64,000 bases of DNA. Origin: a plasmid. Positions within the stretch are counted from its first letter, which is position 1. Each line of letters starts with the position of its first letter. Under the pieces are notes generated by a model. The model made no database searches, was not told the DNA's origin, and saw nothing but the letters and a program-made list of their open reading frames with translations. The stretch lies in sequence record NZ_CP118109.1. One strand, written 5' to 3'. The translations under genes and the position numbers were made by a program. Below, piece after piece: positions 32,284 to 54,992 of this stretch.

Positions 32284-33369
32284 TTAAGAGATAACCCGAA
32301 CTGTTTGAGGATTTGGATAACTGCGTTCGAATGCAAGGTTACGAGCTGTTGCTACTGCCTTACCTTCGTTCAATACGCCGATACCATAACGCTCTTTAAC
32401 TTTGATCGTTTGGATATCACGCATCGGATCGTCGAACTGTTCTGTAGACAATGGGTCTTTTACGAGTACGATACCGATATTGGATTTGTCCACAACGTAC
32501 ATATCGAATTTCTTCTCTTCGTAGTTGAATGGAGCAAACGGCGTAAAGTTGATGTTGATGCTGAATGGAATACGTCCTTGTACGCTGTCTGGGTTGATTT
32601 GCAGGTTCGTGATTTGGGAACCGCCCAGTGCTGCATGAGACAGAGATTGCATCAGATCATTTTTGAAGAATACGCTCCAAGTCAGTGGATGCATGATGAT
32701 ATCTGTAGGATTGAAGCCGTTAGCCATAACCGCTACGAACATGTCGATCATATCTTCTGTGCTCAGTGTATTATTCAGGTTGCCATCGATATCGCGGCCA
32801 GTTGTACCTGCTTCCGTATATTTCGTACGAATATCGTTATCATATACGATGTGACCATGCTTAGAGAATTGGTTGAAGATTTTTTCTTCTTTAAGGCGAG
32901 CCATTGCTTCGCCCGCTTTACGAACCAAGATCCCGATTACGTCCCACTGGGAGTCGTTGATCATTTCGTCTGTAACGCGGACCACCATACCAGATTTACC
33001 AACTTTGACTTCTTGCGTGCGGTGCATTTGGAAGTCAACAGTTTCTTCTAGGTACGATTGGCTTTCCCCGATATCATGCGCACGCATTGCGCCGATAGAC
33101 GGGAACTCGATAGAACGTCCTTCTGTTAGACGTACTGTTTGCATCAGGGTGGAGCCCAAATACATAGGCTCAGCTGCTTCACGCATCATACCAGTAATAA
33201 CGCGCGGGATAAGAATGGAAGCATCTTGTGTAGTGAGTGCTTCTTTTACGCCGACAAGGTCACCTTTCGGGATTTGCGTCCAGTCCTCTTCAAGGTTGAG
33301 TTGACGCTGCATTCTCTCGTAGACTTTCACAGCCTCCGGAGACAATTGCATTTCATTTAAGTTCATCAT
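32284..33369 (-). CDS. 361-aa putative major capsid protein (HK97-fold-like)
   Basis: Size and position after the scaffold-like gene; no diagnostic motif, composition consistent. Confidence 0.45.
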   Translation of the reverse strand: MMNLNEMQLSPEAVKVYERMQRQLNLEEDWTQIPKGDLVGVKEALTTQDASILIPRVITGMMREAAEPMYLGSTLMQTVRLTEGRSIEFPSIGAMRAHDIGESQSYLEETVDFQMHRTQEVKVGKSGMVVRVTDEMINDSQWDVIGILVRKAGEAMARLKEEKIFNQFSKHGHIVYDNDIRTKYTEAGTTGRDIDGNLNNTLSTEDMIDMFVAVMANGFNPTDIIMHPLTWSVFFKNDLMQSLSHAALGGSQITNLQINPDSVQGRIPFSININFTPFAPFNYEEKKFDMYVVDKSNIGIVLVKDPLSTEQFDDPMRDIQTIKVKERYGIGVLNEGKAVATARNLAFERSYPNPQTVRVIS

Positions 33370-34661: not shown

Positions 34662-36104
34662 TTAGTGTTTTTTGCTTTTAAACATGCCACTAAATAGATT
34701 TACAGCATCTTGTCCTGTCATCGTCTTCGGTGTCTCGGACTCATCTGTATGAACACCAGGGTTTGTTACACTACCTGGAACCGGCTTAAGAGTTTTAGAT
34801 TCTGCAAGAAGATCACTTCTCGTATTTTCCAATGACTCTTTACTACGTGTTGCATGAGCATCGACTGCTTCTTGGTGATCAACACCTACAACATCAGGTT
34901 TGTTAAGCTGACGCTTCATCTGAACAACACTTTCTGCAAGAGATCGATGAGCTGCCTCATTCAATGTCGCATTCTCTTGTGTCAGTCGAGAAACCTCGGC
35001 TTGTGCTTCAGATAGCTTTGCTCCCATGCGCTGATTTTCCATTACGAGATTTGTAATGGTTTGCTGCATCTCTGTCAGATTAACTGCCGGAGCTGGAGGA
35101 GTTGCAGGAGCAGGTGGATTGCTTTCCGTTGTTTGTGCAACTGGATCAGCATTCGTAGCTGCAGGAGGTGTTTGCTCTCCTTCTTTCGTACCAGCTACTG
35201 GATTTGTGTCTGGCTCAGCTGGAGGTGTCTGCTCTCCTTCTTTGGTTCCTGTAACAACTGTAGTTTCTGGATTTTCCTCATTTGGATTAGGCATTGTTGT
35301 ACTCCCTTCCTCAAATCTAAGCAAGTTTTCAAAGGCTTTCTTTTGTCCTTCGTTTAACTGCTCATATAGGTTAGTACCTGGGCTATCTACGTGCTGTAGC
35401 AACCCTTCGGCTAGTTGAAAGATGTTCATTTGAACGGATTCCTGAGAAGACCCGCTTGAGTTGCTTCCTTCATCCTCGTAAACTGCAGTAACACCTGTGT
35501 TGCCGGCATATTCGTCAGCAGGGACATTAACATATGAAACTTCACGTCCATATGTTGTTCCAATAATGAAATGAGCTGTCTGATCCTCGTATTCTTGTCC
35601 GGGATAGTGCTCACACCACTCTTGAGTGCGGTCTGATCCGCAAATGTTGCAAGTAACTTTATCTGTACTCGCCCCGATAGATACTGTTTGGTATCGACCA
35701 TCAAGCACCTTCTCGATTGCGACCGGATCGGTGATCTCTACGGTGAACATAAGCCCTGGCTTACCCGACATCGTCACATCATGGTACTCTGCCTTGATGA
35801 TCCGTCCGATTGGCTCACCGTCAACATCATTGTGGTGAGTCAGTACCGGCTTCGGCCGTGGTGACGTCCAGCTTTCAAGACCTGCAGACAATCCTTCTTT
35901 GGTGTAATACGTATAGTTACGAGTACGACCAACGTGGATTGCTTCAATGGTAACAATCAGCTTTTTGGGTTTTCCTTTGGCTGATTCATTCAACACCTGG
36001 ACTGATTCTCGTTTGATCTTTCCGATCGTTCCTAAATTCTCGTTAAAGGCTTTAGGCACCAGTGTTTTTTGTTCATGTTCTGTAAGCGTGTATACATTCC
36101 TCAC
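34662..36104 (-). CDS. 480-aa scaffold-like/prohead core protein with Pro-rich repeats and coiled coil
   Basis: Tandem TKEGEQTPPA repeats, PAPATPPAPA, then a helical Q/E-rich segment. Confidence 0.4.
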   Translation of the reverse strand: MRNVYTLTEHEQKTLVPKAFNENLGTIGKIKRESVQVLNESAKGKPKKLIVTIEAIHVGRTRNYTYYTKEGLSAGLESWTSPRPKPVLTHHNDVDGEPIGRIIKAEYHDVTMSGKPGLMFTVEITDPVAIEKVLDGRYQTVSIGASTDKVTCNICGSDRTQEWCEHYPGQEYEDQTAHFIIGTTYGREVSYVNVPADEYAGNTGVTAVYEDEGSNSSGSSQESVQMNIFQLAEGLLQHVDSPGTNLYEQLNEGQKKAFENLLRFEEGSTTMPNPNEENPETTVVTGTKEGEQTPPAEPDTNPVAGTKEGEQTPPAATNADPVAQTTESNPPAPATPPAPAVNLTEMQQTITNLVMENQRMGAKLSEAQAEVSRLTQENATLNEAAHRSLAESVVQMKRQLNKPDVVGVDHQEAVDAHATRSKESLENTRSDLLAESKTLKPVPGSVTNPGVHTDESETPKTMTGQDAVNLFSGMFKSKKH

Positions 36105-38350
36105 TTAGCTTCACCCCCTTCGTCATGGATTGTTAGATCACATTCGCAGTTCGTGTGAAACGGAGGAATGCGATAGAATATAGCCATCTCATCGTAGGAC
36201 GATAACTCTACCAGTGAGATAATCTCCTGCGATTTTTCATAGCAGGTTGAACAGCTTCCAGGCTCATGAAGAGCTTTTACGCTAGAGACTCCACTTCTGC
36301 CCAGCGCCAGAACATATCCGTAATGATATGTCTTAATCACTGTCGTCTTGGCAATAGCCTTAATGCGATGCCTTACAGATTCAAACACGCTGCGCGTGAT
36401 TAGAATTGCTTTGTTTTCATCATCTACACCTTTGAGCTTTTCATTTAATACGTGATGTATCGTTTCTTCCATCAAATCAAAAGAATCTTGTGTAAATTCA
36501 GATACCAGTCGAAGCGATTGCGATAAGTTAATACCAGGCGATTTAGATAGCTTTAATTGAGTAGCAGCTTTCTTTGCTCCTTCAAGGAGTACGCTTCTTG
36601 CTTCTTTCTGAATAACTTGATCCATTTTGTCTTTGCTGAAATGTATCGCAGAAAGGGCTTCAGATGGTGAAGTCATTGGAAACCTGTTACGGGTCTTCGT
36701 CCGCTGAATCTCACCAATCACATCCTCCTCCATCATAGAGAAGACTTTACTCATCTCTTTATGAAGGGATTGCACAGTCTCAATAGGAAGTTCAAATTCC
36801 GATTGAATCTGGTCGTATTGGTCTTTTTCTTTCAGCGAAATTCCAATCACTTTGTCGTACATTTCCTTCAAGGATTCTGTACTGCTTTTTGGTCCGGATC
36901 GTGTTCCATTTTGATTGGTTGGCTGTTGCTTATTGTTTGTTTCCGCACTGCCGGATGCCGCGACTGCTGCTTGATCAAGAGTCGCTTGATGCTCTGCTTG
37001 CTGCATCCCAATCATTTGGAAGTGTAATCGACCTTCATCGGTTACGGGGTCCATTCCGATATTCTTACGGGTTTCATCCCACGTCTGAACGTTATGCTCA
37101 AATTTAAAGATCTCATGTGTTTCGACCTTGATACGCATTTCTTGTTCAATTTCATTGAAGACGAAGTTAACTCTAAAATCAGGGTTGGCCATAGGATCAT
37201 AGCCGCCTTCAACCAGAAGTTCTTCGATAATGAATTGATCAATGTACATTTGGATCGTTTTCTGCCAACCTTTCACTCGGTCAGCTTTATTTCCACCCAT
37301 AGCGTCCGCTGTATTTCGATTGGCTGTATCTCCCCGACCGAAATCGACTTGAGACATACCAAGCCCCGAGAACACTCGGTTTTCGAAATAATCCAGATAA
37401 GGACGGCCATCAATGGCTGTTATATTTACAGCTTCTACTTTATGGCGTTCTGGAAGGACGATCGCACCATCCGTCGGTAAATCTTCGATAACAGATCGAA
37501 TAGCTTCAAGCTCTTCATCCGTTGCCTCATATCCCGGCTGTGCAACACCTACCGTATAAGCCAGAAGCGGAAAGATGTGTCGATACAGCAGGAGTGCCGC
37601 ATTCTCTTCAACCTTTCGCAAAAGCCTTACATCATCTATAACAGGAGCAAGAAACGGAATACCAAATGCTTCGCCTGCTGGACGATTCACAGGAATGTGA
37701 ATCATATCCTGCACCTGAAAATCTACTGTGTCTCCGCCTGATCCTGAATCCTGCGTATAGCTGGATACATTACCTTGATCATCCCGCGTAATTGAGATCG
37801 TCGCCGGTGGAAGTCTAAAATATCCGGCTACGGGATCTTTGGCTGGAAGGACTGCTGTTGCGGGAAGACCCGGAGGTAAACCCACTCCATTTTTTGCCCT
37901 GGCTTTGACAATGAAAGAGTTGTGAAATCTTACAACATCATCTGCGATTCCATGAAATAGCTCGTCTGTAGGTACTTGTGTAGCAATCGCCATCATATCC
38001 AGCCTTGTCTTGAGATACTGCAGAGCTTCATCACTACGACTCTTAAATGCATAGCCGCCTTTCATGATTAGCTCACTGTATTTCAGGACTGTCTGTGTTA
38101 GATAACTATCACGCTCTATGGCGGTTGCAATGGCTGCAAAGTCCGATTTCGGAGTTTCAGCATCACTACCACCTGAGCTGTTTTTGACTGCATATCCTAC
38201 TCGCTTGACTTGAGTCGCTTTTGGATCACGATTGACAGTGATGCCGCTACTGGAGCTGCCGCCCGTTGGAGTCGTTGCGTTCTTTAGGCCAATACGTGAT
38301 AAGACATTCATAAAAAGCTTAGCCAAGAAACACATCTCCTTTCCGAGCAA
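36101..38350 (-). CDS. 749-aa putative portal protein
   Basis: Large ORF two genes downstream of the large terminase and upstream of scaffold/capsid candidates; possible TTG start with RBS AAGGAG. Confidence 0.4.
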   Translation of the reverse strand: MLGKEMCFLAKLFMNVLSRIGLKNATTPTGGSSSSGITVNRDPKATQVKRVGYAVKNSSGGSDAETPKSDFAAIATAIERDSYLTQTVLKYSELIMKGGYAFKSRSDEALQYLKTRLDMMAIATQVPTDELFHGIADDVVRFHNSFIVKARAKNGVGLPPGLPATAVLPAKDPVAGYFRLPPATISITRDDQGNVSSYTQDSGSGGDTVDFQVQDMIHIPVNRPAGEAFGIPFLAPVIDDVRLLRKVEENAALLLYRHIFPLLAYTVGVAQPGYEATDEELEAIRSVIEDLPTDGAIVLPERHKVEAVNITAIDGRPYLDYFENRVFSGLGMSQVDFGRGDTANRNTADAMGGNKADRVKGWQKTIQMYIDQFIIEELLVEGGYDPMANPDFRVNFVFNEIEQEMRIKVETHEIFKFEHNVQTWDETRKNIGMDPVTDEGRLHFQMIGMQQAEHQATLDQAAVAASGSAETNNKQQPTNQNGTRSGPKSSTESLKEMYDKVIGISLKEKDQYDQIQSEFELPIETVQSLHKEMSKVFSMMEEDVIGEIQRTKTRNRFPMTSPSEALSAIHFSKDKMDQVIQKEARSVLLEGAKKAATQLKLSKSPGINLSQSLRLVSEFTQDSFDLMEETIHHVLNEKLKGVDDENKAILITRSVFESVRHRIKAIAKTTVIKTYHYGYVLALGRSGVSSVKALHEPGSCSTCYEKSQEIISLVELSSYDEMAIFYRIPPFHTNCECDLTIHDEGGEAK

Positions 38351-39821: not shown

Positions 39822-41582
39822 TCAAAACTTAGCTCTTGTCGGACGATTCTTCGCATTACCGCGACCCCATATATTCGATCCGCCTCTACTTCTTTTTCCA
39901 CCATATCCAAGTTGAACTTTCTCCCAGTGCCAGTTCGGGTTGTCCCTCGCTTCACGCTCTGGTTTTTTGTTTTGGATATTGAATATATCACGTTGACCGC
40001 CGAATACTTGCTCTGCGATCTTCTCTTCTGATGTGTTATGCGATACGAAAGCACGAGTGGCTACATTGAACTTCTCCAAGACCTTCGCGATCTCAGGAAA
40101 CTCTAATGTAAATCCAAGGATCGTCAGCATGAATGCATCCAGTGCATGCTCATTTTCTGACGTATAGATCGGCTTACCGTTTTGTGAGATACGGATAACT
40201 TGGTAATCCATCATTTGCTTCCACACCATATCATCGAATGGTGAAAGAACGATTCGATCTCGTTCCAATAGGATAGCTGTTTGGTTAACCATGAAGTTTT
40301 TCGCATCTTTCTTATCGACTTCACGAGTCGCTGGATCACGCACTTCAAAGGTTTGTGCGAACTGAATCCGCTTCACCTTTTTATCTAGCTGTGTATATGG
40401 ATTATCTCGGCCGTGAAGACGAAGAGCCTCAACTTGATACTCCCCGCTACCAGCATCTACATAGACAAAGGCAGGGTTATATATGTCATTTAGCTCAATA
40501 ATTCGTTTTACCGCATTATCGAACGTAAAATCGCTCCGAGGTATTTCTGATCTTAGGCAGACTCTGAATTTCTTCAGCTGTTCATCAAACTCCGTAACGA
40601 TAATCTGAGTCGCTGCACCGTATTTATCCCAGTCCACTCCGATGATCCGGAGAGCTTTCGGTGCTGGGTTATTTATAGTATAAGGCCCGTAATAAACAAT
40701 GTCATCTAGGTTGATGCCTTGCTTCTGATACTGCTCACGCTCATACGTATTCAGAGAGCGATAACTATAATGATATTGGCTTTTTGCTCGTTCTACCGCG
40801 TCTTTATTAAATACTCCGACGGTTTCTTCTCCGAACTCTGCCTCAACCTCGTGGATATAACCCTGTTGAGTCATTGTCGCACGCATTTCGCCTTCCATCC
40901 GTTCATCAAAGTCAGGGTTGACGTGAGAAGGGAAGTGATAGGCAATATAACCCGTATCTGGATTCGTACAGATATCATAAAAGAAGTCACGTTTACCTGT
41001 AGGTGTAGAGCTTACCCAAATACCGATACGTTTCGGATCTTCGAGTGCAATGGCGGTTACAGCATCAATACCGTCACGAGACATATAATCAACCTCATCA
41101 AGGAACAACCAGTCTGCCCGCTGACCCCGGACGGATGCACCGGCTTGGCTGCCGGCATTCGCACCAGCTGTAAAGCCCATGATCTTCGATCCATTACCGA
41201 AGGATGCAATAAACGGATTCTTGGTTATGGTGACTGAGGCACTTAGCTCTTCGCAATCTCGAACTAACTCCTGCAGACGCATGAAGATCAAGCGAACCTG
41301 ATGTTCGTAAGGCGTTGCAATAAGTAGACGACTATTCTTATGATGAAACGCGTACCAAAGACAGAATACAACCATGGTCTCTGTCTTGCCAACCCGTCGT
41401 CCCATTCGGGCGGCAACACGCCGGTCGCCATTCATGATCCCTCGGATCATCTTTCGCTGATACCAACGTGCCTTCCAAGCATTCCCCTTCGGGTCTTTCA
41501 GCTTCCAGTACGCCCACTTAATCGGATCAGAGCGAATCTCTCGCTCCATTTCAAATAACTGTCTTTCTTCGACACTTTGCAT
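39822..41582 (-). CDS. terL: 586-aa terminase large subunit
   Basis: Walker A GRRVGKT, Walker B WLFLDE, nuclease-domain acidic motifs (VDAGSGEYQ); basic Gly/Arg-rich C-terminal tail. Confidence 0.75.
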   Translation of the reverse strand: MQSVEERQLFEMEREIRSDPIKWAYWKLKDPKGNAWKARWYQRKMIRGIMNGDRRVAARMGRRVGKTETMVVFCLWYAFHHKNSRLLIATPYEHQVRLIFMRLQELVRDCEELSASVTITKNPFIASFGNGSKIMGFTAGANAGSQAGASVRGQRADWLFLDEVDYMSRDGIDAVTAIALEDPKRIGIWVSSTPTGKRDFFYDICTNPDTGYIAYHFPSHVNPDFDERMEGEMRATMTQQGYIHEVEAEFGEETVGVFNKDAVERAKSQYHYSYRSLNTYEREQYQKQGINLDDIVYYGPYTINNPAPKALRIIGVDWDKYGAATQIIVTEFDEQLKKFRVCLRSEIPRSDFTFDNAVKRIIELNDIYNPAFVYVDAGSGEYQVEALRLHGRDNPYTQLDKKVKRIQFAQTFEVRDPATREVDKKDAKNFMVNQTAILLERDRIVLSPFDDMVWKQMMDYQVIRISQNGKPIYTSENEHALDAFMLTILGFTLEFPEIAKVLEKFNVATRAFVSHNTSEEKIAEQVFGGQRDIFNIQNKKPEREARDNPNWHWEKVQLGYGGKRSRGGSNIWGRGNAKNRPTRAKF

Positions 41583-41887: not shown

Positions 41888-42283
41888 TTAATTATTCATT
41901 CCGTCTGCAATTCCGCCAATTAAAGAGCCACCTAAAGCAGCCGCTCCGTAAGTTAAAGCTTTTGATTTTCCACTTCCAAAAGCTTTTCCGTGATAACCTT
42001 TAACTGACTGGCTAAAAGACGATGCTTTTCTCATTGCCGCATCGCCAACAGTAGCTCTGGCTCTTTGTCCGTCTGTTACTGGAACCCCTGATGCATTGCT
42101 ATATCGAATATCATCATGGGCTCTTCTAGTAAACTCTCTCACCGGCTTTTTCATGCCACGCAAAGCAGCTTTTGTTCCGAATTGTGCTCCCGCAGCAAGC
42201 GTACCTCCTACGATAGCCCCACCGACAAGACCCGATCCAATACCATCATCCACGCGGTTATATGGATTGTTTGATTGCATCAT
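41888..42283 (-). CDS. 131-aa Gly/Ala-rich small protein (paralog D), glycine-zipper-like
   Basis: MMQSNNPYNRV N-terminus and ...GGSLIGGIADGMNN C-terminus, paralogous to the 42295..42642 product; RBS GAGGTGA. Confidence 0.5.
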   Translation of the reverse strand: MMQSNNPYNRVDDGIGSGLVGGAIVGGTLAAGAQFGTKAALRGMKKPVREFTRRAHDDIRYSNASGVPVTDGQRARATVGDAAMRKASSFSQSVKGYHGKAFGSGKSKALTYGAAALGGSLIGGIADGMNN

Positions 42284-42294
42284 TGTTATTCACC

Positions 42295-42642
42295 TCAATC
42301 ACTCATATAGTCAATTCCTGCCCCAATTCCTCCACCAAGCACAGCAGCACCAGCATAAAACCCTGCTTTCTTCCAGCCACCGCCAAACACCTTGCCATAA
42401 CCTCGCTCTACTTTTCCGCCGACTCCGACTGCTTTAGCAGTCTTCTTGGTGGATCCGTACTCCGGTAATAGAGGTGTGGAATCTTTTTTGGCTGATCTAG
42501 CTGCACTTATAAGTGAAGCTCCTTTTGCTCCTGCATGAACTACACCCATGCTCGCCGCCCCAGCCAAAGCCCCATAGGCTGCGCCATTGTAAACAGGGTC
42601 GTGGTTACTGACTCTCTGATAGGGTTCATTGCTTCTCATCAT
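42295..42642 (-). CDS. 115-aa Gly/Ala-rich small protein (paralog C)
   Basis: MMRSNEPYQRV ... GGGIGAGIDYMSD; RBS GGGAGGTGA. Confidence 0.5.
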   Translation of the reverse strand: MMRSNEPYQRVSNHDPVYNGAAYGALAGAASMGVVHAGAKGASLISAARSAKKDSTPLLPEYGSTKKTAKAVGVGGKVERGYGKVFGGGWKKAGFYAGAAVLGGGIGAGIDYMSD

Positions 42643-42659
42643 CTTTACTCACCTCCCTC

Positions 42660-43094
42660 TCAGTAGGCTTTAGATGCCCCGCGCGCATGCCTGTACATAA
42701 TGGCAGAAGCCGTGTTTCTCGCATTGGATGCATTCTGCATACCCGTCTGTTGCATATACATTTGCCCTTCATTCTGCGCGAAGCCGCCTCCAAACATAGA
42801 GGACTTCTGACGAATACCAGCCTTAGCCGCATCGGTCATCCGGATGATCTCAGGCGTCATAGATACGCCTGCCATAACCCCCATTGTAAGGAACCCACCG
42901 GGCATAAGGTTCCACGCGGCGTTAGTCAAAGCTGCTTTACCAATTGCGACAGCTGCATTCTCTCCATCTTTAATCCGAGAAACAGCATCAACTGCAACCA
43001 TCCCGGCACCGAATGCACGGGCTATCTTTCCTTCTTTTCTTATCTGATTGACGCCTTGACCAGGCGGCAACGCTTGTGTTGTCATATTGGACAT
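42660..43094 (-). CDS. 144-aa Gly/Ala/Met-rich small protein (B)
   Basis: ORF; low-complexity G/A/M-rich. Confidence 0.45.
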   Translation of the reverse strand: MSNMTTQALPPGQGVNQIRKEGKIARAFGAGMVAVDAVSRIKDGENAAVAIGKAALTNAAWNLMPGGFLTMGVMAGVSMTPEIIRMTDAAKAGIRQKSSMFGGGFAQNEGQMYMQQTGMQNASNARNTASAIMYRHARGASKAY

Positions 43095-43098
43095 CTAC

Positions 43099-43458
43099 CT
43101 AGCCTCCATGCCTTAAATTGTGCAGGGCAAATACTAGGTCGCCTCTCGCAGCCAGATCTTGATTGCCGGCAGGATCGCCTAGATATCCCATGCCATCCGA
43201 TCTTGTCCCAGGAAGCGACATAATCCCCCGATCATCCATAGCATCCATTGCATTTCGATTACCTGCTTCGGACTGTCCATTTATAACCTGATATCCGCCG
43301 TAAGCTCCCATTCCTGTAAGGGCTACCGCCTTTCCTTTTCTGGATAGTCCAAATCCTGTATACAGGTTATTGATGCTTCGCTGAGTGTTCTTCTCAAACA
43401 TCGAAGGGACTTGTTTCCCTATATATTTGCCCACGTTTACAGCGCCTCTGACATACAT
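43099..43458 (-). CDS. 119-aa Gly-rich small protein (A)
   Basis: ORF; Gly-rich. Confidence 0.45.
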   Translation of the reverse strand: MYVRGAVNVGKYIGKQVPSMFEKNTQRSINNLYTGFGLSRKGKAVALTGMGAYGGYQVINGQSEAGNRNAMDAMDDRGIMSLPGTRSDGMGYLGDPAGNQDLAARGDLVFALHNLRHGG

Positions 43459-44630: not shown

Positions 44631-44796
44631 GACCCCGATCGGTACTGTTTGGGCAGTCTATCCCCTTAGCTTAATTGTACAGGCTCTGGTATTTTCAGGA
44701 CATTTGCGCCTATGAATGCACAAAAAAATAGAGCCCCATGAAGGGACCCTATCTTGTGTAATTCTATTTGATTTCATTTAATTCCGCTAGAAAGCG

Positions 44797-44973
44797 TTAT
44801 TTTCCTTCGTTTTGCTCCGATTCAATAGCTTTCGATAATAATCGTCTGGCTTCTGTTGCCCAATCACCTGGCTTGATCTTATCGAAATGATCTTTAATAT
44901 CTGTATCGACATCACGAATGATGACTTGGACTTTCGGCACCTTCCGTGCTTTCGTCTCTCTTTCTTCAGCCAT
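44797..44973 (-). CDS. 58-aa small basic/acidic protein translationally coupled (TAATG) to the actin-like gene; candidate ParR/AlpR-type DNA-binding adaptor
   Basis: ATG overlaps the stop of the upstream gene; MAEERETKARKVPKVQVIIRDVDTDIKDHFDKIKPGDWATEARRLLSKAIESEQNEGK; below the 60-aa cutoff of the ORF track. Confidence 0.5.
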   Translation of the reverse strand: MAEERETKARKVPKVQVIIRDVDTDIKDHFDKIKPGDWATEARRLLSKAIESEQNEGK

Positions 44974-46166
44974 TACGCTGCCTCGCTTTCGAATATATCT
45001 TTGATGAATCTTTCATAAACCTGCTCAAAGTTCAGACTGCCATCTTCCTGTTCCTTGACTTGGTTCATTGCCGCACGAATATAGAATCCATATACGTTCG
45101 CCATTTGCGGGTCGTCCACTACGGAGAAGGCTTGTACCTTACGCTTCGCAAACTCTTCTTTCAAGAAGTCTTGGAAGATATGTGCGCCCCCGCCTGAAAG
45201 CAAGATGATCTTCACACGGTTCGCATGCTGACCCCAAGACGTAATAACCTCATTTGCGATGACTGCAGAGATCTCCTTCGCGGCTTCTTCTACAAGATGA
45301 TACAGATTATGAGAAGCGCCATTGAACTCGATTTCTTCTCCACGAACGACTGAATCTAGTTCGTCATCCGTTGGGCTGTAAGCAACCCCAAACTCGTTAT
45401 CAAAGTGAATAGCCATACTCACTTTGAGTCGCTTGTACAGCTCAGCAGTCGCAAGTGTCGATCCATAAGTTCCCTCTTCCTCTACATATACGCCTTCGGA
45501 GAATAATGCATAATCTGTAGTGAGGTGCCCGATATCAACGATAGCAGTCAAAGCTCTGTAGAGCGTAGTCGTCAAAAGACCTTCTTTTGTGAAAGCGAAT
45601 TGTGTAGATGTTACACTTCCCTCTGGCTGTCTCAAGATTTCATATCCAATAACATTAATTTTCTTAGTGATTGTTTTTCCATAACCAAGGTAGATCACAA
45701 TTTCAAAACTTTGGTTTATGTACTCTTCCAACCGTGTGCGAATACCTTTATCGAAATCCTCATTCGGCAGACCAGTTGTTAAGTAGACATTATATTCTCC
45801 ATCTTCATGAGGAACACATAGTGCAAGATTGGTTTCAAACATAACTCTGAATGATGGATCGGATGCACGGTCATGATTGGTTGTCCGACTTGTAACCAGA
45901 AGCTTATTACTCTTCATTGCCTGTTCGCCTACATGATAGAAACCGTCAGTAGTCTTCACCATCAAGCGAGATTCATCGACTTCTGTGTGCTTAAAGGAAT
46001 TAGCGAACTTTTCATTTGTAGGCATGACAGTACTCGGTATGACACCGAACATGCCTAAGCTCGACATGCGCTTGCTTCCATTAAAACCAATATCAATTGC
46101 TGCAAGCTCAAAATCAAATAAGTCTTCTAGCTTTAACTTCAAATCTTTCACTTTTTTCACCGCCAT
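44973..46166 (-). CDS. 397-aa actin-like ATPase (ParM/Alp family)
   Basis: Actin-fold phosphate-1 LAAIDIGFNGSK, phosphate-2 IVDIGHLTTDYALF, adenosine motif ILLSGGGA; RBS GGAGG. Confidence 0.7.
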   Translation of the reverse strand: MAVKKVKDLKLKLEDLFDFELAAIDIGFNGSKRMSSLGMFGVIPSTVMPTNEKFANSFKHTEVDESRLMVKTTDGFYHVGEQAMKSNKLLVTSRTTNHDRASDPSFRVMFETNLALCVPHEDGEYNVYLTTGLPNEDFDKGIRTRLEEYINQSFEIVIYLGYGKTITKKINVIGYEILRQPEGSVTSTQFAFTKEGLLTTTLYRALTAIVDIGHLTTDYALFSEGVYVEEEGTYGSTLATAELYKRLKVSMAIHFDNEFGVAYSPTDDELDSVVRGEEIEFNGASHNLYHLVEEAAKEISAVIANEVITSWGQHANRVKIILLSGGGAHIFQDFLKEEFAKRKVQAFSVVDDPQMANVYGFYIRAAMNQVKEQEDGSLNFEQVYERFIKDIFESEAA

Positions 46167-46187
46167 GATTGTTTTCCTCCTAATTCG

Positions 46188-46213
46188 ACATGTTATATCA
46201 TATTATAACATGT
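46188..46213. promoter_or_regulatory. Perfect 10-bp inverted repeat ACATGTTATA-N6-TATAACATGT, 22-47 nt upstream of the actin-like gene start: candidate operator/centromere-like site
   Basis: Read directly from the sequence. Confidence 0.5.
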
Positions 46214-46742
46214 TCTGATGTATTCTCTCGTAAACGATCATAACATATTTAATAGATACCAAGCAACCCTTAATTTGGACAACAAAAAAAGCAGCAGGTG
46301 TGCCGCCCGCCGCTTTTCGAACAAGTGAAGCTGTATGAGGTTGGAGATCTCACGTATCCTTCGCTGAGTTATATTTTAAGCCATTTGGCAAAAAATATCA
46401 AGAACGTATGTTCTCTTTTTGTGATTTCTTTTCACAGAAAAGGCTTCAAGACCGTTGCCAACGTTTCAACATATGATTTCAACACTGGAGGTGTAATTTT
46501 AACAGATAGAGGGTGGCAGTCCTATGACCTGTTGGCTATTTACTTGAAGCCCTTTTCTCTAAAAAGAGTATTGGCATACTCCGGATTATTTTTTTGTAGG
46601 AGGTGTCGTGAGCCCATGCTAAGCATCACGATTAATCCGGAGCAAACCATACTGTGTCCAGTCAGCTATTTTGAGGAGAGCTGCTGCAGTCATCTGCCAA
46701 GTCGGGTCTGTGTTCTCGACTTGAGTTTATTCTATACGATAA

Positions 46743-46756
46743 TGTAATGCATTACA
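46743..46756. promoter_or_regulatory. TGTAATGCATTACA perfect palindrome copy at the edge of a 640-bp ORF-free region
   Basis: Same motif family. Confidence 0.45.
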
Positions 46757-46854
46757 ATATGATTATATATTATTTCACGCGTTTTCTCTCTTTTTTTCTT
46801 TGACGCTTTTGATTTTGCTCTATGATGTACGTTTCCTCTTGATGTGTCGCTTTC

Positions 46855-47712
46855 TTATCCGTTATTACCTGGGGTGCTGTTGCCGATGTCACTAGCAGCA
46901 ATAGTATCGCCAAGGAGCATTTGTCTCGCCTCTTCAGTCGTTTGAAAACTCGCATTTAATCTCCGTCCTCTTCCATGTCTTATTCCATTGAATTTCCGCG
47001 CCCTTGCAAGGTCACATTCGATCTGTAAAGCAATTTGCTCTGCATCCATAAATAGCTCTCCATAACTAGATGGAGCTCTTGGAGAAGGCATGATAAAGGT
47101 CTGGACTTCATGATTTCCGATTCGTGGTTTTATTCGATGACCAAAAAACTTCTTAAACGTGTTATCCAGCAATGCTGTATATGTGGACACCATAATAACA
47201 TCAGCATAGATCATAACTTGTTCCAGCCAGCTTGAATGGATCATCATAGAGTCTGCTTCATCGAATATAACCAAGCAATCGTTTAGTTCTTGTGGTGAAT
47301 ATTCCCCGATCTTCATCTCGAAAGATATCGTCCTACCATTTTCCAAGGAGAACCCATTGGATGTATAATCGTATTGGATTCCATCCTGAATAAGGCGTGA
47401 CCTTATCATATCTCTATGGGCTTGTGATGAAGCAACATACCGATCAAATACAACAACGTTCTTGTTTGACCTGATTACCTTTTCACTTAAGGCAGTAGTC
47501 TTCCCTGCTCTCCTGTGAGCAACGACCGCAATATGGCCGTTATCGCACTCATGGAACAGTCTCCAGCGTTCTTGATAGTCAGACTCTTGGACGACGATAG
47601 GTTCTCCTGTTGCCCTTGATACCCTTTGCAAATATTCCATCAATAGCTCCAAGTGTTGTCCCTCCCTTCTCAAGCTCTCTGAAACGAGGAACAACCTCAC
47701 CTTCGTACTCAA
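46855..47712 (-). CDS. 285-aa P-loop NTPase (Walker A AHRRAGKTT, Walker B LVIFDEAD)
   Basis: Motifs; true start may be downstream (overlaps next ORF by 130 nt). Confidence 0.5.
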   Translation of the reverse strand: MSTKVRLFLVSESLRREGQHLELLMEYLQRVSRATGEPIVVQESDYQERWRLFHECDNGHIAVVAHRRAGKTTALSEKVIRSNKNVVVFDRYVASSQAHRDMIRSRLIQDGIQYDYTSNGFSLENGRTISFEMKIGEYSPQELNDCLVIFDEADSMMIHSSWLEQVMIYADVIMVSTYTALLDNTFKKFFGHRIKPRIGNHEVQTFIMPSPRAPSSYGELFMDAEQIALQIECDLARARKFNGIRHGRGRRLNASFQTTEEARQMLLGDTIAASDIGNSTPGNNG

Positions 47713-50992: not shown

Positions 50993-51343
50993 TAGGTCAT
51001 GGACATGGCATGGTATAGATGCATAGGGAGTACACGATAACGGTGGATGATCCCCTATGTAGGCTATACCCTCTACCCTACCTTATATGGTGGCATGGGT
51101 GGCAGTACTATGGTTAGCCATATTGTGCCTATGTATATGGGCATATGGGTGTGTAGGTGCACTCTATCATATACAGCCCCTGTGTAGTACGCATGGTCCG
51201 GGTCAGCCGCCCCCATGTGTAGTATGCAGGGGTCTTTTTATTTATTTACACATAGCTCCCTGTATAGGTGCCCTATATAGACCCCCCTCTATATGGACCC
51301 CCCTATATAGGGAGCTGTATGTAAGTACAGCACATTTAACCCC
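50993..51343 (+). repeat. 350-bp ORF-free GC-rich array of about 10 degenerate CCC(C)TRTRTAGG-like words immediately upstream of the polymerase gene
   Basis: cccctatgtagg, ccttatatggtgg, cctatgtatatggg, cccctgtgtag, ccccatgtgtag, ccctgtatagg, ccctatatag, cccctctatatgg, cccctatataggg; T-run at ~51230. Confidence 0.5.
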
Positions 51344-51359
51344 AAGGAGGAATCACTCT

Positions 51360-54300
51360 ATGTCAACTGATTCAAAGAAAGCTATGTCGTCCGTCCCTAT
51401 GTCCAACAAACAAACTAAAACAAACAAAAAGGAGCAATCTACAATGACTAACAACAAACAAGCACAAATCAACAAGCAACTGGCTGAGGTAAACCGTCTT
51501 TTCAACAAAGCTATCAAAGGTAACAAACTAGAGGCGCAAATGTCTGATTACAAGTCTACTTCTGTAGTATTGGATGCTATTGCTGAGTTCCCAGGATTGG
51601 GCGTTAAAACAAAGAATTATGAGGCTATCACAGCTGCTATCGCTAGTGGTAAGGATATCCGTACTGTTATGGAGAACCCGGAGCTTACTGGTGTTCCTAA
51701 GAATCAATATCGCTTCTTCCGTGCATTCATGGAAGAGAAAGGTGCAGAGATTCCTGCTATGGTGATTGCACCTACTCGTAAGCGTGTACGTACTGTATCT
51801 GTCGATCTATTGAAACATTCCCGCAACGAAGCTGGTGAAGTGGTGCTCAACGCGGAAGTCAGCTATCAATCTCAGTCTCAGCTTGCTGATGCATTCGGTA
51901 AATTGGTTCCAGCTACAGATAGCAATGATCTACACTTGGATGCGACTCACATTGTCTATATCGATTTGAATATCGCTGATCAAGAGAATCAAGAAATGAA
52001 AGACTTGCAAATCGAGATCGTCCGTAATGGATTCTATTACACAGTGGAAGGCGTTACACGCAAAGCTAACTTCTTTATTCAGACAGCAAATCAAACTCGT
52101 CAATTGCAAGGTATCTATATTGCAGAGGACTTCATGACGATTCCTCAAGCATTCCGCAAGCTTGGTCATAGCTTCCTGTCTTATTGCAAACTGGATAAGG
52201 CTACTGGTGTCTATACACTGGATATCACGAAGTATCTGAAACGTCCAGGTCTGTCTGGTACAAGCTCTGTGCCATCTAAGGTAGTAACCTTCCCTAATGC
52301 TCATATCGACAAGCTGCCTAACATGAGAACAGGAGAATACTTGGTTAACTCTGATCGTCACTCTATGGCAGTGATTGATGATCGCTTTGCTAAGATCAAG
52401 AATGGTAAGTTCAAAGCATTCTATAACAACCGTGTAGTCACTGTATCTGCGGTTGATGGTACATTCACAGCTACATGGAAAGAAGGACGCATGACTAAAG
52501 AAGAAGTCCTGCCTATGAACTATCTGAAGCTTGGCGTAGGCGATGGCTTGGTTCTAGCTTCCGAGTCGATCTACTGGGCATTGAAGGCTGAGTTTGGCAA
52601 TGATTCCGATGCATGGCAAGTACGTATCACCCCATTCGTTAAAGGCTTGATGGTATTCGTGCCAGGCTTGCGTCAATACTATGATGCAGATATCGTTGCA
52701 TTCAAGTCTGCTGTGAAAGGTGACTTCCGTTTGCTTGCTGATAGCGAAGGTAAGATTGACTTTGGTATTGAGCTGCGTATTGCACGCTTTGCTAAGCGTC
52801 CTGCTATGAAGTCTGAGTATGTAGAGCTTCCATATCAGTTTGCACATGTATCCAGCATTACAGCAGAGCAAATGATTGATGTTGCTCAACCACGCCTGGA
52901 TGAAGCTAAGAGTGTACTTACTAATCCTGCACTGATTCAAAAGTATGCAGGGGTTGCTCACTTGGAGAAGCTGAACAAGCTGACTCTTGCACAAGCTGAG
53001 TTTCTACGTGATCGCTCCCTTGTTTCTGTATTTGCTAACTTCATGCACTATGCTCCATTCACATTCCAAGATGCTTACATGCAAACAAGAGCACTGAGAC
53101 TGATGGGGCAGCAAGTAGACAAATGGGTTGCTGGTACGATTCCTGTAGAAGGCGAGTATCGCTTCATGGTTCAAGATCCATATGCATTGCTTCAAGCTGT
53201 GGAAGATGAGAATGGAGATATGATTGTCCCTGATCACGTTGGTCTTAAGCCACACCAAACATTCATGACAGCACGCGATAACCAACACTTTGTAGAGGGC
53301 CCTGTTGCATCCTTCCGTAACCCTGCTATTGCTAAAGGTGAAGGACGTATCTTGAATGGTGTAGCTCCACAAAACTATGTGACTGCTTCTGCTAAAGGCG
53401 CATTCAACTCTGTATGTGTAATGAGCTGCCATGACTTGGATACATTCGCTGAAGGCGGAGCTGATAACGATGGTGATGAAACATTCATTACACAAGTACG
53501 TGCTATCGTTAATGGCATCATGGGTAAAGATGGTCAATCTAAGTTCTTGGCTATGCTTGACCTGCATGTAGATAAAGATGGTGAGTGGTCTTCTGGATGC
53601 CCGTTCCCTATGGAATCTGATGAGAAGCTTGCATTTGATGCTCCTTGCGTATCACACGATGGACAATTCAAAGTGAAGTTCACTGCCGATCAATATAATG
53701 ATGCATTCATTCAAGCTGTACATGAGCTAAGCAAAGAGTATGTCATTCGTACACTGACTCCTAACAAGATCGGTCAACTGACTAACATTGCTACTCGTCT
53801 TGCTGATGCTGTACGTAAAGTAGGATATATGTATGCAGAGAATACCAATGAGTTTGGTCAAAAGACTGAACGTTCAGATGCTGAGAAACAAGAGCTGATT
53901 AGAGAGATCGCTCGTATGGAAGATATGATCGACTTGATTCGTCTGGCTCAAGGATGGGAGATTGACCGTGCTAAGCATGGTGGTGCATATGAGGAAGCAT
54001 TGGCTGCTGAATTGGAGTTCATCAACAATCCTCCAAGATATGCAGGATTCCAAGAGTCACCTAAATCCAAGCGTCAATGGATCAAGCAAGCATGGCTCGC
54101 ACATCACAAAGGTGCTGAGGGTGGAGTAGACACAGGTTCTGTAATGTCCCGTGTGCATAACCACATGAAAGCATTCGTACAAGAGAATGTAATCGACAAG
54201 TCCGAAGAGATCATGAACGATGTAGAGAACAACAACCTGATTCATATCCTGAGAGCTGAGTATGTTATTGATCCAGTTATCTATGACAGAATCGCTAACT

Positions 54301-54992
54301 CTATTCGTTCCATTCGCTCTATCTATACAAACGACATCAAGAACGCTCGTCAGAAGCATGAAGAGTTCATCAAGCTTGCTGAGCTGAAATATGGTGAGGC
54401 TGATCCTGCACTGGCGATGGCTAAAGAGAAGATCGAGCGTATCTATAGAGATGATTGCGATGCGATCACCTATAAGAGTCAAATGACACTTGGCGCTTTG
54501 GAGTTCTCTTTCTCTGCGACTGATATCGGCTATGTTGCATACATGGTGACATACACTGAGAGAGGTCAAGATAACAATCGTTCGATCAGCTTCCCTTGGG
54601 TCGTGGCTAAGAAGCAATTCTTGGAGCTGTGTGCTGCTATCTCTAATCGTGAGATTGTGAAGAACCCTTATGTTGTCCCTGCATCTGATATCAAGGCAAA
54701 CTTCCGTATTGGGGCTGATTCAACTGGTCGTGTGTTTGATGGAGAGAGAATGGCACCTGTCATTGCGAATGCAGGTATGGTAACAGTGGAGTATATGTAT
54801 AACGAAGTTACTGAAAGCTACATGTATGTTGTTTATGTTCCAGTAGGCAGCAGAAATGTATATGTAGGCGACTTCTACCAAGATCAAGTTGGATTCTTGA
54901 CTGGTGCAACACGTTTCAATCTTACAGTGTCCAATGCTGAAGCTAAAGGCAGAACTATGAGTCTGACGATCTCCAGCATCGAACGCATGTAA
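51360..54992 (+). CDS. 1210-aa single-chain two-barrel (YonO/RDR/crAss gp66-like) RNA polymerase candidate
   Basis: Beta-prime DPBB signature VASFRNPAIAKGEGRIL ... GGADNDGDETF (compare NRAPTLHRLG ... NADFDGDQM); RBS AAGGAGG 9 nt upstream of ATG 51360 (alternative ATG 51444 also has an RBS); the track N-terminal extension from 51087 translates a repeat array and is rejected. Confidence 0.65.
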   Translation: MSTDSKKAMSSVPMSNKQTKTNKKEQSTMTNNKQAQINKQLAEVNRLFNKAIKGNKLEAQMSDYKSTSVVLDAIAEFPGLGVKTKNYEAITAAIASGKDIRTVMENPELTGVPKNQYRFFRAFMEEKGAEIPAMVIAPTRKRVRTVSVDLLKHSRNEAGEVVLNAEVSYQSQSQLADAFGKLVPATDSNDLHLDATHIVYIDLNIADQENQEMKDLQIEIVRNGFYYTVEGVTRKANFFIQTANQTRQLQGIYIAEDFMTIPQAFRKLGHSFLSYCKLDKATGVYTLDITKYLKRPGLSGTSSVPSKVVTFPNAHIDKLPNMRTGEYLVNSDRHSMAVIDDRFAKIKNGKFKAFYNNRVVTVSAVDGTFTATWKEGRMTKEEVLPMNYLKLGVGDGLVLASESIYWALKAEFGNDSDAWQVRITPFVKGLMVFVPGLRQYYDADIVAFKSAVKGDFRLLADSEGKIDFGIELRIARFAKRPAMKSEYVELPYQFAHVSSITAEQMIDVAQPRLDEAKSVLTNPALIQKYAGVAHLEKLNKLTLAQAEFLRDRSLVSVFANFMHYAPFTFQDAYMQTRALRLMGQQVDKWVAGTIPVEGEYRFMVQDPYALLQAVEDENGDMIVPDHVGLKPHQTFMTARDNQHFVEGPVASFRNPAIAKGEGRILNGVAPQNYVTASAKGAFNSVCVMSCHDLDTFAEGGADNDGDETFITQVRAIVNGIMGKDGQSKFLAMLDLHVDKDGEWSSGCPFPMESDEKLAFDAPCVSHDGQFKVKFTADQYNDAFIQAVHELSKEYVIRTLTPNKIGQLTNIATRLADAVRKVGYMYAENTNEFGQKTERSDAEKQELIREIARMEDMIDLIRLAQGWEIDRAKHGGAYEEALAAELEFINNPPRYAGFQESPKSKRQWIKQAWLAHHKGAEGGVDTGSVMSRVHNHMKAFVQENVIDKSEEIMNDVENNNLIHILRAEYVIDPVIYDRIANSIRSIRSIYTNDIKNARQKHEEFIKLAELKYGEADPALAMAKEKIERIYRDDCDAITYKSQMTLGALEFSFSATDIGYVAYMVTYTERGQDNNRSISFPWVVAKKQFLELCAAISNREIVKNPYVVPASDIKANFRIGADSTGRVFDGERMAPVIANAGMVTVEYMYNEVTESYMYVVYVPVGSRNVYVGDFYQDQVGFLTGATRFNLTVSNAEAKGRTMSLTISSIERM

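Follow-up and report, generated by a model that had tools for sequence, protein, structure and literature searches.

In a plasmid of Paenibacillus urinalis, an actin-like gene and a small ORF lie directly 5′ of phage packaging genes. This raises the question of whether the two genes segregate the plasmid, serve the phage during lytic growth, or have fallen out of use. The window analysed here is a stretch of 64,000 nucleotides from this plasmid. An earlier note on the same DNA had proposed an actin-like segregation module with a palindromic operator inside a phage late region. We consider that the locus is most probably a type II (ParMRC-like) partition operon, which would keep a low-copy phage-plasmid of ~215 kb in both daughter cells while it persists as a plasmid prophage.

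The actin-like motor gene

46166..44973, minus strand: parM-like gene, 397-aa actin-fold NTPase, putative partition motor (Pfam, PHROG, AlphaFold2, Foldseek)

The 397-aa protein has the same sequence (100%) as WDI05155.1, which is annotated in GenBank as 'ParM/StbA family protein (plasmid)'. The motifs read in it by the earlier note are present: DIGFNGSK at residue 25, VDIGHLTTD at residue 210, and LSGGGA at residue 323. All features of the locus are on the minus strand, which the note had left unstated. The phosphate 1 (DxG), phosphate 2 (DxGxxT/D), and adenosine (GGG) motifs were all found, and D25, G27, K32, D211, G213, T217, D218, and G325-G327 are unchanged in 23/23 motor homologues (36–71% identity).

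A profile search against the ParM/Alp families, which the note had suggested as a check, showed that the protein passes the cut-offs of Pfam ALP_N (87.5 bits, cut-off 26.3) and MreB-like_C (54.5 bits, cut-off 27.8). It also matched PHROG 691 'partition protein' (E 3e-39), and a PDB sequence search found Dh-cParM1 and pCBH ParM (E ~1e-10). Structure prediction likewise bore out the expected actin fold. The AlphaFold2 model had a mean pLDDT of 89.2 and a pTM of 0.87, and its top Foldseek matches were all ParM/Alp partition actins, namely pCBH ParM, Dh-cParM1, pSK41 ParM, and Alp7A, the best with TM-scores up to 0.74–0.79. ParM, Alp7A, BtParM, Ta0583, and MamK were matched with a Foldseek probability of 1.00, followed by actin and Hsp70, as expected of a two-domain Actin/Hsp70-type fold. 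According to the model, the motor has a ParM-type actin fold.

The score against the NCBIfam ParM equivalog model PRK13917 was 65.7 bits, far under the cut-off of 417, and the motor therefore represents a separate Alp family. Pfam Alp7A_like_C was matched with 26.9 bits (cut-off 22), over model positions 80–141 of 156 only.

The small adaptor ORF and the limits of the operon

44973..44797, minus strand: 58-aa adaptor candidate (ParR-like), start overlapping the parM stop at TAATG
46286..46318, minus strand: intrinsic terminator 5′ of parM (scan; RNAfold −18.4 kcal/mol), predicted to insulate parM from upstream transcription
44721..44752, minus strand: intrinsic terminator 3′ of the adaptor, AUAGGGUCCC-UUCAU-GGGGCUCUAU followed by U7

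The coupling of a 58-aa ORF to parM at TAATG was confirmed: the ATG of the adaptor and the TAA stop of parM have one A in common. An adaptor ORF adjoins parM in 15/15 loci, beginning at a distance of −10 to +14 nt from that gene's stop, and the TAATG overlap itself occurs in eight of the 15. The adaptor family has no Pfam model. No sequence link to ribbon-helix-helix families was found by PDB profile search, by Pfam scans of 21 members and 10 representative-search matches, the most remote included, or by a full HMMER search (1.84 billion representatives). Foldseek gave no link to the ribbon-helix-helix fold, and no sequence relation to ParR was detectable. We infer that a ribbon-helix-helix fold of the adaptor is likely.

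The helix of the terminator before parM is well conserved (98% of cells paired over five relatives), and it contains G-U pairs, so this terminator is able to work on the parM strand only. Past the adaptor, a hairpin and U-run occupy the equivalent site in five relatives (L002, L004, L005, L009, and L016) with stems that differ in sequence. The parM and adaptor genes thus appear to form a two-gene unit with an intrinsic terminator on either side, and the adjacent start and flanking terminators suggest that the adaptor is co-expressed with parM.

The iteron array and the parM promoter

46186..46215, minus strand: iteron array, candidate parC centromere and operator (GAACATGTTA, TAATATGATA, TAACATGTCG), containing the perfect dyad
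46241..46250, minus strand: fourth iteron-like half-site AAATATGTTA, overlapping the extended −10 of the parM promoter
46237..46266, minus strand: inferred parM promoter TTGCTT-N18-TGtTATGAT (family alignment; consensus match only)
46176..46181, minus strand: parM ribosome-binding site AGGAGG

The earlier note had placed a perfect dyad over the likely promoter. The dyad (ACATGTTATA-N6-TATAACATGT, 46188–46213) is indeed perfect and lies 22–47 nt 5′ of the parM ATG, but the conserved predicted promoter (46266–46237) is located just upstream of it, so the array would mostly be transcribed, as part of the leader that runs from +1 to the ribosome-binding site. The predicted promoter comprises a −35 TTGCTT (46266–46261), an 18-nt spacer, and an extended −10 TGtTATGAT (46245–46237). 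The aligned columns are conserved in the relatives, which have TTGCTT, TTGTCC, or TTGTCT at −35 and an extended −10 with TG. A standard scan missed this promoter because its −35 fits 3/6 positions only.

Perfect dyads with 10-nt arms occur three times in the window and ~0.9 times in shuffles, so the dyad alone is just mildly unusual. Seen from the parM strand, the dyad forms three AAYATG repeats in 10-bp phase, the sole such triplet in the window and absent from 300 shuffles (0/300). Three iterons of 10 bp are the better reading of the dyad. The closest relatives, L004 and L013, keep the array with four TAACATG units at 10-bp spacing, compared with three here, and their counterpart of the half-site is GGACATGTTA. 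The other relatives have their own lineage-specific short repeats at the same position in all loci, for example TTAGACA ×4, TAAACA ×5, TTCATACAT ×2, and GAATCC/GGATTC. We regard the iterons as a candidate centromere and operator, placed near the promoter like the repeat centromere of a type II locus. The general layout proposed earlier, a ParM/Alp motor with a coupled adaptor and an upstream repeat operator, is therefore borne out by the fold, the 15 loci, and the repeats.

The same observations bear on whether the cassette is still in use. It is extremely unlikely to be an inactive relic on a plasmid maintained by another system outside the window. Both ORFs are intact, the catalytic motifs are invariant in the family, all 15 loci have the adaptor and keep it coupled to parM, and repeat arrays are maintained in all lineages. 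On the other side, 64 kb of ~215 kb is visible here, and other partition or replication loci would lie beyond this survey.

The ORF-free stretch upstream of parM

46729..46757, minus strand: promoter P1 TTGTAA-17-TAGAAT, a neighbour outside the cassette, −35 within the TGTAATGCATTACA palindrome
46284..46413, minus strand: LexA (Cheo) box, promoter P2, and predicted non-coding RNA, a neighbour outside the cassette

The earlier note had included a 640-bp ORF-free stretch ending in a palindrome in the partition locus. The palindrome (TGTAATGCATTACA, 46743–46756) is present and no conserved ORF was found; the stretch and the palindrome do not belong to the partition locus. A gap of 688 bp separates the parM ATG from the next conserved gene, whose stop is at 46855. 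This gap holds mechanical ORFs, such as a plus-strand 149-aa GTG ORF, and no ORF in it is conserved on either strand in the relatives. The 149-aa ORF and a 43-aa ORF with a GGAGG site 5′ of it were rejected as genes, since both are broken or frame-shifted in L004, L013, L016, and L005. In the short P2 transcript, a GTG ORF of 27 codons was likewise dismissed, as its start codon is missing from L004.

Two conserved promoters in the stretch are directed toward the terminator before parM. The LexA (Cheo) box GAACATACGTTC (46413–46402) abuts the −35 of P2 (TTGATA-17-TAAAAT, 46401–46373), whose predicted product is a ~83-nt non-coding transcript that ends at the 46286..46318 terminator. The box has the form GAAC-N4-GTTC in 5/5 close relatives, with a variable central N4. 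A structured part of the stretch is also conserved, and the stretch has a 23-bp long-range stem with seven pairs altered on both sides. A hairpin at ~46572–46649 was unsupported in the relatives (58% of cells paired). More distant relatives have tRNA arrays in the equivalent slot; ARAGORN found 0 tRNA in the window. At gathering thresholds, Rfam had no match in the window, and the stretch alone gave just a chance-level match (E 0.86). When the window was searched with the CU-rich RNA motifs for trans targets, just their own complements were returned. P2-pattern scans of viral and metagenome contigs gave 46 loci with one true relative (L030), and the covariation power is therefore low.

The palindrome is kept 5′ of the tRNA/ncRNA slot in L001, L002, and L009, and L004 has a symmetric variant (TGTAACGCGTTACA). 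It also occurs at further promoters elsewhere (16 matches at ≤3 mismatches, 4.1 expected) and is a promoter-associated motif recurring across the element.

In R1 and Alp7AR, the centromere is situated 5′ of the motor gene. This position, with the lack of a conserved ORF, would suit a role of the stretch and palindrome in partition, either extending the centromere or offering the adaptor a second region to bind. We consider this very unlikely. Copies of the iteron core are promoter-proximal only, with none further in the stretch, and a conserved strand-specific terminator separates the stretch from parM. The two promoters, the long-range stem, the tRNA arrays of the distant relatives, and the recurrence of the palindrome at other promoters also argue against it. 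The 640-bp stretch is a slot for RNA genes that has promoters and a terminator of its own, not a centromere.

The LexA box allows a further reading, in which the cassette is wired into the lysis-lysogeny switch; we hold this to be doubtful. Directly 5′ of parM, and only in this clade, lies a LexA-box promoter whose product would be a ~83-nt CU-rich RNA ending just before the parM promoter, and a longer structured RNA would fill the slot of the relatives' tRNA arrays. The SOS-induced RNA or its read-through might then modulate the expression of parM and the adaptor. Alternatively, the actin system might be re-used after induction to position replicating DNA.

The element and its relatives

The 397-aa protein is encoded in a GenBank record of Paenibacillus urinalis of 214,846 bp, labelled as a plasmid. 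Its relatives are complete Bacillus and Paenibacillus plasmids of 200–260 kb, with TerL 67–72% identical. Both its own record and the relatives are plasmids, as expected of an extrachromosomal replicon. The relatives have in common the gene order parM, small ORF, large terminase and the same phage packaging genes. The plasmid-prophage reading of the earlier note agrees with this deposition and with the packaging genes of the related plasmids. From these genes and records, the element can be classed as a jumbo phage-plasmid of ~215 kb, both plasmid and phage. A nucleotide search of the locus gave 0 matches in the phage and plasmid collections, from which its own record is absent. Neither Pfam nor PDB gave a match for a divergent 1301-aa protein. 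The element is also represented by a Logan contig that starts 398 nt 5′ of parM, a start that was attributed to fragmented assembly and not to an end of the genome.

The lineage may correspond to 'pp_Blicheniformis', a community described previously (PMC7969092).

Among the same relatives, ParM is 34–71% identical and TerL 65–88%, so ParM diverges much faster. Faster divergence of the motor is usual for partition systems under incompatibility pressure.

The operon is on the same strand as the packaging genes and directly 5′ of them, so its expression during lytic growth is possible. The actin-adaptor pair could then act mainly in the lytic cycle, positioning or transporting replicating phage DNA instead of partitioning the prophage plasmid, like AlpC/AlpA of CGP3 or the tubulin PhuZ of some jumbo phages, and a dual role is conceivable. 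The alternative offered by the earlier note, a filament that positions DNA or virions, may likewise apply. AlpAC, whose adaptor binds the operon's own promoter region, has the same architecture, and efficient replication of the phage depends on it (PMC4446434). Strictly lytic Bacillus myophages also carry distant actin-like 'plasmid segregation' proteins, and a distant actin-like protein occurs in phage G. We nevertheless find a mainly lytic role unlikely. The operon has its own predicted host-type promoter and a terminator on each flank. Every plasmid-borne relative carries a parM homologue, whereas the jumbo phages that are nearest by TerL among those isolated as virions (0305phi8-36, WH1, Edson, KLEB27-3, and MTATph1) showed none at E up to 1. 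Two smaller plasmids of 140–145 kb retain parM and the adaptor, although in the 17 kb taken from each no TerL, 246-aa protein, or portal was detected.

Comparison with known partition systems

Pairs of a ParM-like and a ribbon-helix-helix protein have been described in Bacillus plasmid prophages, the jumbo pBtic235 group included (PMC8026635, PMC11526630). IEBH, vB_BtS_B83, and the pBtic235 group are, like the element here, phage-plasmids with an actin-like motor and an adjoining small DNA-binding adaptor, which is a candidate here (PMC8026635, PMC11526630). pBtic235 is likewise a myovirus-type phage-plasmid of ~235 kb with a giant tape-measure-like protein. However, its TerL and that of the present element are only 40% identical, and the host genus is Paenibacillus and not Bacillus. 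In a plasmid collection containing pBtic235, this ParM had no tblastn match to it at E up to 1e-5, and the motor here is therefore of a different Alp lineage. Compared with pBtic235-like phage-plasmids, the sequences indicate a related kind of element of a different lineage, with neither the backbone nor the motor in common.

R1 ParMRC and pSK41 ParMR have the same motor-then-adaptor order, phased short repeats at the operon promoter, and the actin fold (Foldseek 3js6, E 1e-18; 4a61, E 1.5e-13), and their motors are 12–21% identical to the one here over the Foldseek alignments. The R1 centromere comprises ten 11-bp units, and the repeats here are fewer, with three to four 10-bp units. The closest solved structures, in sequence as well as in fold, are pCBH ParM of Clostridium botulinum and Dh-cParM1 of Desulfitobacterium hafniense (PDB 6izr, 6ixw, and 8x1i), with TM-scores of 0.67–0.79 and 18–20% identity. 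Alp7AR of pLS20, to which the layout had also been likened, has its centromere and operator at the operon promoter. Alp7A matched the motor in Foldseek (5ec0, E 1.2e-18) with 17% identity, and Alp7R is unrelated in sequence to the adaptor. By sequence, the motor probably does not belong to the Alp7A family. Dh-cParM1 is chromosome-encoded (PMC12270681).

In the Corynebacterium prophage CGP3, the actin AlpC is co-transcribed with AlpA, an adaptor that attaches to the promoter region of the operon itself; AlpC takes part in the replication of phage DNA, not in inheritance (PMC4446434). CGP3 is chromosomally integrated and its AlpAC is active after induction, whereas the element here is a resident plasmid.

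Proposed mechanism and significance

As a partition operon, the cassette could work as follows. The host-type promoter would drive parM, and the adaptor would be translated through the coupling at TAATG. Adaptor dimers, probably with a ribbon-helix-helix fold, would occupy, by cooperative binding, the half-site at the −10 and the 10-bp-phased iterons that follow it before the ribosome-binding site. The adaptor-iteron complex would be both centromere and autorepressor of the operon. Complexes on sister copies would capture the ends of ATP-bound ParM filaments, whose elongation would push the copies apart. The short length of the array, three units and one half-site compared with ten units in R1, speaks against this reading.

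These results leave the current understanding unchanged. The motor was already annotated in GenBank, and pairs of ParM and ribbon-helix-helix proteins in Bacillus plasmid prophages were already published. The analysis confirms from sequence that a ~215-kb Paenibacillus element combines myovirus-type packaging and head genes with plasmid persistence and a ParMR-type cassette. It places the element in a widespread, little-described lineage of 200–260-kb Bacillales phage-plasmids found in Bacillus licheniformis, B. halotolerans, B. thuringiensis, and Paenibacillus, and probably in Alicyclobacillus and Oceanobacillus. If the link to the lysis-lysogeny switch were true, this jumbo phage-plasmid would carry an actin system that is coupled to the SOS response and serves two uses. 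The analysis also defines a small adaptor family in which each lineage's adaptor is paired with its own iteron array, and these pairs are ready-made material for studies of type II partition specificity and incompatibility.

The ParM Protein and Its Partner

The locus comprises two overlapping genes:

46166..44973, minus strand: parM, an ORF of 397 aa
44973..44797, minus strand: small ORF of 58 aa, with its ATG overlapping the parM stop codon TAA by one base (TAATG)

The large ORF encodes an actin of the ParM type. The three actin-fold nucleotide-binding motifs that the earlier note had read in it, DIGFNGSK (residue 25), VDIGHLTTD (210), and LSGGGA (323), are all present on the minus strand. 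The profile search suggested there showed that the protein exceeded the Pfam gathering cut-offs of ALP_N (87.5 bits) and MreB-like_C (54.5 bits) and, with partial model coverage, barely exceeded that of Alp7A_like_C. It matched PHROG 691 'partition protein' (E 3e-39), and its closest solved structures by sequence were Dh-cParM1 and pCBH ParM (E about 1e-10). Its score fell short of the NCBIfam cut-off for the ParM equivalog, so the protein belongs to a separate Alp lineage.

The AlphaFold2 model, with 23 homologues as input, had a mean pLDDT of 89 and a pTM of 0.87 and showed the expected actin fold. Its top Foldseek matches were pCBH ParM, Dh-cParM1, pSK41 ParM, and Alp7A; B. thuringiensis ParM, CorM, and Ta0583 were also among the best, and R1 ParM, MamK, actin, and Hsp70 ranked after these. 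The nucleotide-binding residues showed no variation among homologues of 36–71% identity. The identical GenBank protein WDI05155.1 is labelled 'ParM/StbA family protein (plasmid) [Paenibacillus urinalis]' and comes from a contig of 214,846 bp.

The small ORF is a genuine and conserved partner of parM, and the TAATG overlap at 44973, from which its translational coupling to the parM stop had been proposed, is present. A homologue of 52–64 aa starts −10 to +14 nt from the parM stop in 15/15 loci, with the TAATG overlap in eight of the 15. The GenBank entry (WDI05154.1) is named 'hypothetical protein'. A large protein collection contains at least 50 family members, of which none has a Pfam domain and those with a name are all 'hypothetical'. 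A HMMER search of 1.84 billion representatives found about 25 clusters of the family, and even the remotest matches had no link to a known family. The AlphaFold2 model (pLDDT 86) has an extended segment (KVQVIIRD) at the N-terminus followed by one short and one long helix, which is the element order of ribbon-helix-helix (RHH) proteins. The model suggests that the small ORF is a likely but unproven RHH protein.

Operon Boundaries, Promoter, and Repeat Site

46318-46286, parM strand: upstream intrinsic terminator, strand-specific, just 5′ of the parM promoter
46266-46237, minus strand: predicted parM promoter, conserved by alignment (TTGCTT, 18 nt, extended −10 TGtTATGAT)
46250-46241, minus strand: fourth half-site
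46188-46213: perfect dyad ACATGTTATA-N6-TATAACATGT
44752-44721, minus strand: downstream terminator, 3′ of the small ORF

Across five relatives, 98% of the cells of the upstream terminator helix were paired. At the position of the downstream terminator, a hairpin with a U-run occurs in L002, L004, L005, L009, and L016, with different stem sequences. Because terminators lie on both sides, parM and the small ORF are a self-contained unit inside the rightward-to-leftward gene block.

The perfect dyad was found where it had been reported, 22–47 nt 5′ of the parM ATG. The window has slightly more perfect dyads with 10-nt arms than its shuffles do (three vs. about 0.9). Read on the parM strand, the dyad forms three 10-bp units, GAACATGTTA, TAATATGATA, and TAACATGTCG. 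The window has one such threefold AAYATG array with 10-bp phasing, and none of 300 shuffles produced any. The two closest relatives, L004 and L013 (ParM 71% identical), have four TAACATG units at 10-bp spacing. In each of the other relatives, the interval from the −10 to the ribosome-binding site of parM contains different, lineage-specific repeats: TTAGACA ×4, TAAACA ×5, TTCATACAT ×2, GTTGACAAAATGAACA ×2, GAATCC/GGATTC, and TGTATACA. Repeats that keep their position and helical phasing but differ in sequence between lineages fit a candidate centromere and operator that would evolve together with the putative adaptor encoded by the small ORF.

The dyad had been placed over the likely promoter. 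The promoter predicted by alignment would put the three iterons downstream of it, in the leader from about +15 to +45, with the fourth half-site overlying the −10. A TATAAT within the dyad offers an alternative −10, though it lacks both a −35 and conservation.

The ORF-Free Stretch Upstream of parM

46757-46729, minus strand: promoter P1 (TTGTAA-17-TAGAAT), with its −35 inside the palindrome
46743-46756: palindrome TGTAATGCATTACA, 14 bp
46566-46543 / 46450-46428: long-range stem, about 23 bp
46413-46402, minus strand: GAAC-N4-GTTC box, abutting the −35 of P2
46401-46373, minus strand: promoter P2 (TTGATA-17-TAAAAT), strong promoter-like site

The earlier description of an ORF-free stretch ending in a palindrome was correct: neither strand has an ORF conserved among the five close relatives. 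The stretch is, however, an RNA slot with its own promoters, and not part of the partition locus. P1 starts it on the parM strand, with a predicted transcript of about 430 nt that contains the long-range stem. This stem encloses a variable interior, and 86% of its cells are paired. Seven pairs are altered on both sides between relatives, a modest support from five sequences. The CU-rich motifs CTCTCCTCAA and CGACACCTCCT are conserved 5′ of it. The 46428-46566 region is probably a structured non-coding RNA, and it has no Rfam family.

The GAAC-N4-GTTC box matches the Bacillus LexA (Cheo box) consensus. It is kept in all five relatives (including L004, L005, L013, and L016), though the central N4 varies. 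Downstream of P2, a CU-rich non-coding stretch of about 83 nt, without an Rfam match, runs up to the terminator that immediately precedes the parM promoter; it could be an SOS-induced small RNA. In distant relatives (L001, L002, L003, L007–L012), the equivalent gap of roughly 1 kb contains arrays of 1–7 tRNA genes on the parM strand, most commonly tRNA-Asn. The gap has no tRNA genes in the window and its closest relatives.

The palindrome has 16 matches in the window (≤3 mismatches) vs. 4.1 expected, and 0/100 shuffles had as many. Copies or near-copies lie at 46743, 13573, 38384, 50305, 30389, 19923, and 59419, and in relatives at L001 7243 and 16299, L002 7675, L009 3417 and 6437, and L010 2438. 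L004 has a symmetric variant, TGTAACGCGTTACA. The palindrome is located about 17–18 nt 5′ of −10-like hexamers. It precedes the portal gene, a tail-region gene, the leftward operon at 50260, and the RNA slot in the window, and tRNA arrays and the portal gene in relatives. It probably serves the whole element as a promoter or operator motif for a putative regulator. A role as a partition site is unlikely, as it recurs at other promoters of the element.

The Element and Its Relatives

The element is a jumbo phage-plasmid. Three phage genes share the strand of parM and lie 3′ of it:

41582..39822, minus strand: large terminase (TerL)
38350..36101, minus strand: portal
33369..32284, minus strand: major capsid protein

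ParM homologues (34–71% identity) were found on contigs of 198–216 kb and on complete 200–260-kb plasmids of B. licheniformis, B. paralicheniformis, B. halotolerans, B. thuringiensis, and P. rhizovicinus. These plasmids and the GenBank plasmid label bear out the earlier suggestion of a plasmid prophage. The conserved gene order is giant divergent protein, RNA-gene gap, parM, small ORF, ~250-aa protein, glycine-rich small proteins, TerL, ~420-aa protein, and portal. TerL identity to the window is 67–72% in the 200–260-kb plasmids, 40% in pBtic235, and 34–44% in the virion-isolated phages 0305phi8-36, vB_BceM_WH1, Edson, KLEB27-3, and Moorella MTATph1. No homologue of this ParM was found in these five phages, even at E ≤ 1. 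Between the same relatives, ParM diverges much faster than TerL.

Four adjacent small glycine-rich proteins (131, 115, 144, and 119 aa; 41888-43458, minus strand), between the 246-aa protein and TerL, appear paralogous to each other; the block recurs throughout the family with varying copy number. The window TerL is uninterrupted. In several relatives (L010 11166-13185, L011 10446-12585, and the pBtic235 TerL region, H59–H66), TerL is interrupted, with LAGLIDADG homing-endonuclease annotation or split ORFs, which suggests inteins or introns. The 1957-aa ORF at 6259-12132 (minus strand) in the tail region has no family match, and resembles in size and position the 2161-aa putative tape-measure protein of pBtic235-like elements. 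A 1301-aa protein (51087-54992, plus strand), divergent from the parM-side block, has a DNDGD motif at residue 793. The window protein itself matched nothing in Pfam or, by sequence, in the PDB; its L005 and L012 homologues have precomputed matches to PF05183 (RdRP). It is probably a YonO-like single-subunit RNA polymerase; YonO-like enzymes are known in 0305phi8-36 (PMC7824862).

Partition or Lytic Cycle

The main rival to partition, which we consider improbable, is a lytic-cycle role like that of AlpAC of CGP3 (PMC4446434). Some weight is added to it by the proximity of the operon to the packaging genes and by the distant actins of lytic Bacillus phages. However, the operon is insulated from its neighbours by terminators, and the cassette is perfectly associated with the plasmid-borne state. 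Moreover, parM and the adaptor are kept in two 140–145-kb plasmids, L003 (B. cereus G9842 pG9842_140) and L008 (B. thuringiensis lyx16 p1, 145 kb), together with counterparts of the 144-aa and 422-aa proteins. The 17 kb analysed of each plasmid gave no match to TerL, the 246-aa protein, or the portal. These plasmids appear to be decayed descendants of the jumbo phage-plasmid lineage.

The motor, adaptor, and repeat site agree with the partition-locus layout (ParMRC, Alp7AR) proposed earlier. The best-supported mechanism, which we consider probable, is classical type II partition with autoregulation, of which we infer the steps from adaptor binding onward. The cassette may also have a dual role, in partition and in the lytic cycle.

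Part of this is already known. ParM is named in GenBank, and earlier work on Bacillus plasmid prophages, among them the jumbo pBtic235 group, has described pairs of ParM-like and RHH proteins (PMC8026635, PMC11526630). The jumbo phage-plasmid pBtic235 is inducible and linked to LexA (PMC9700832), and a B. licheniformis phage-plasmid community has been listed (PMC7969092). New, though minor, are an adaptor family that lacked annotation, iterons specific to each lineage, and an RNA slot with a promoter next to a LexA box.
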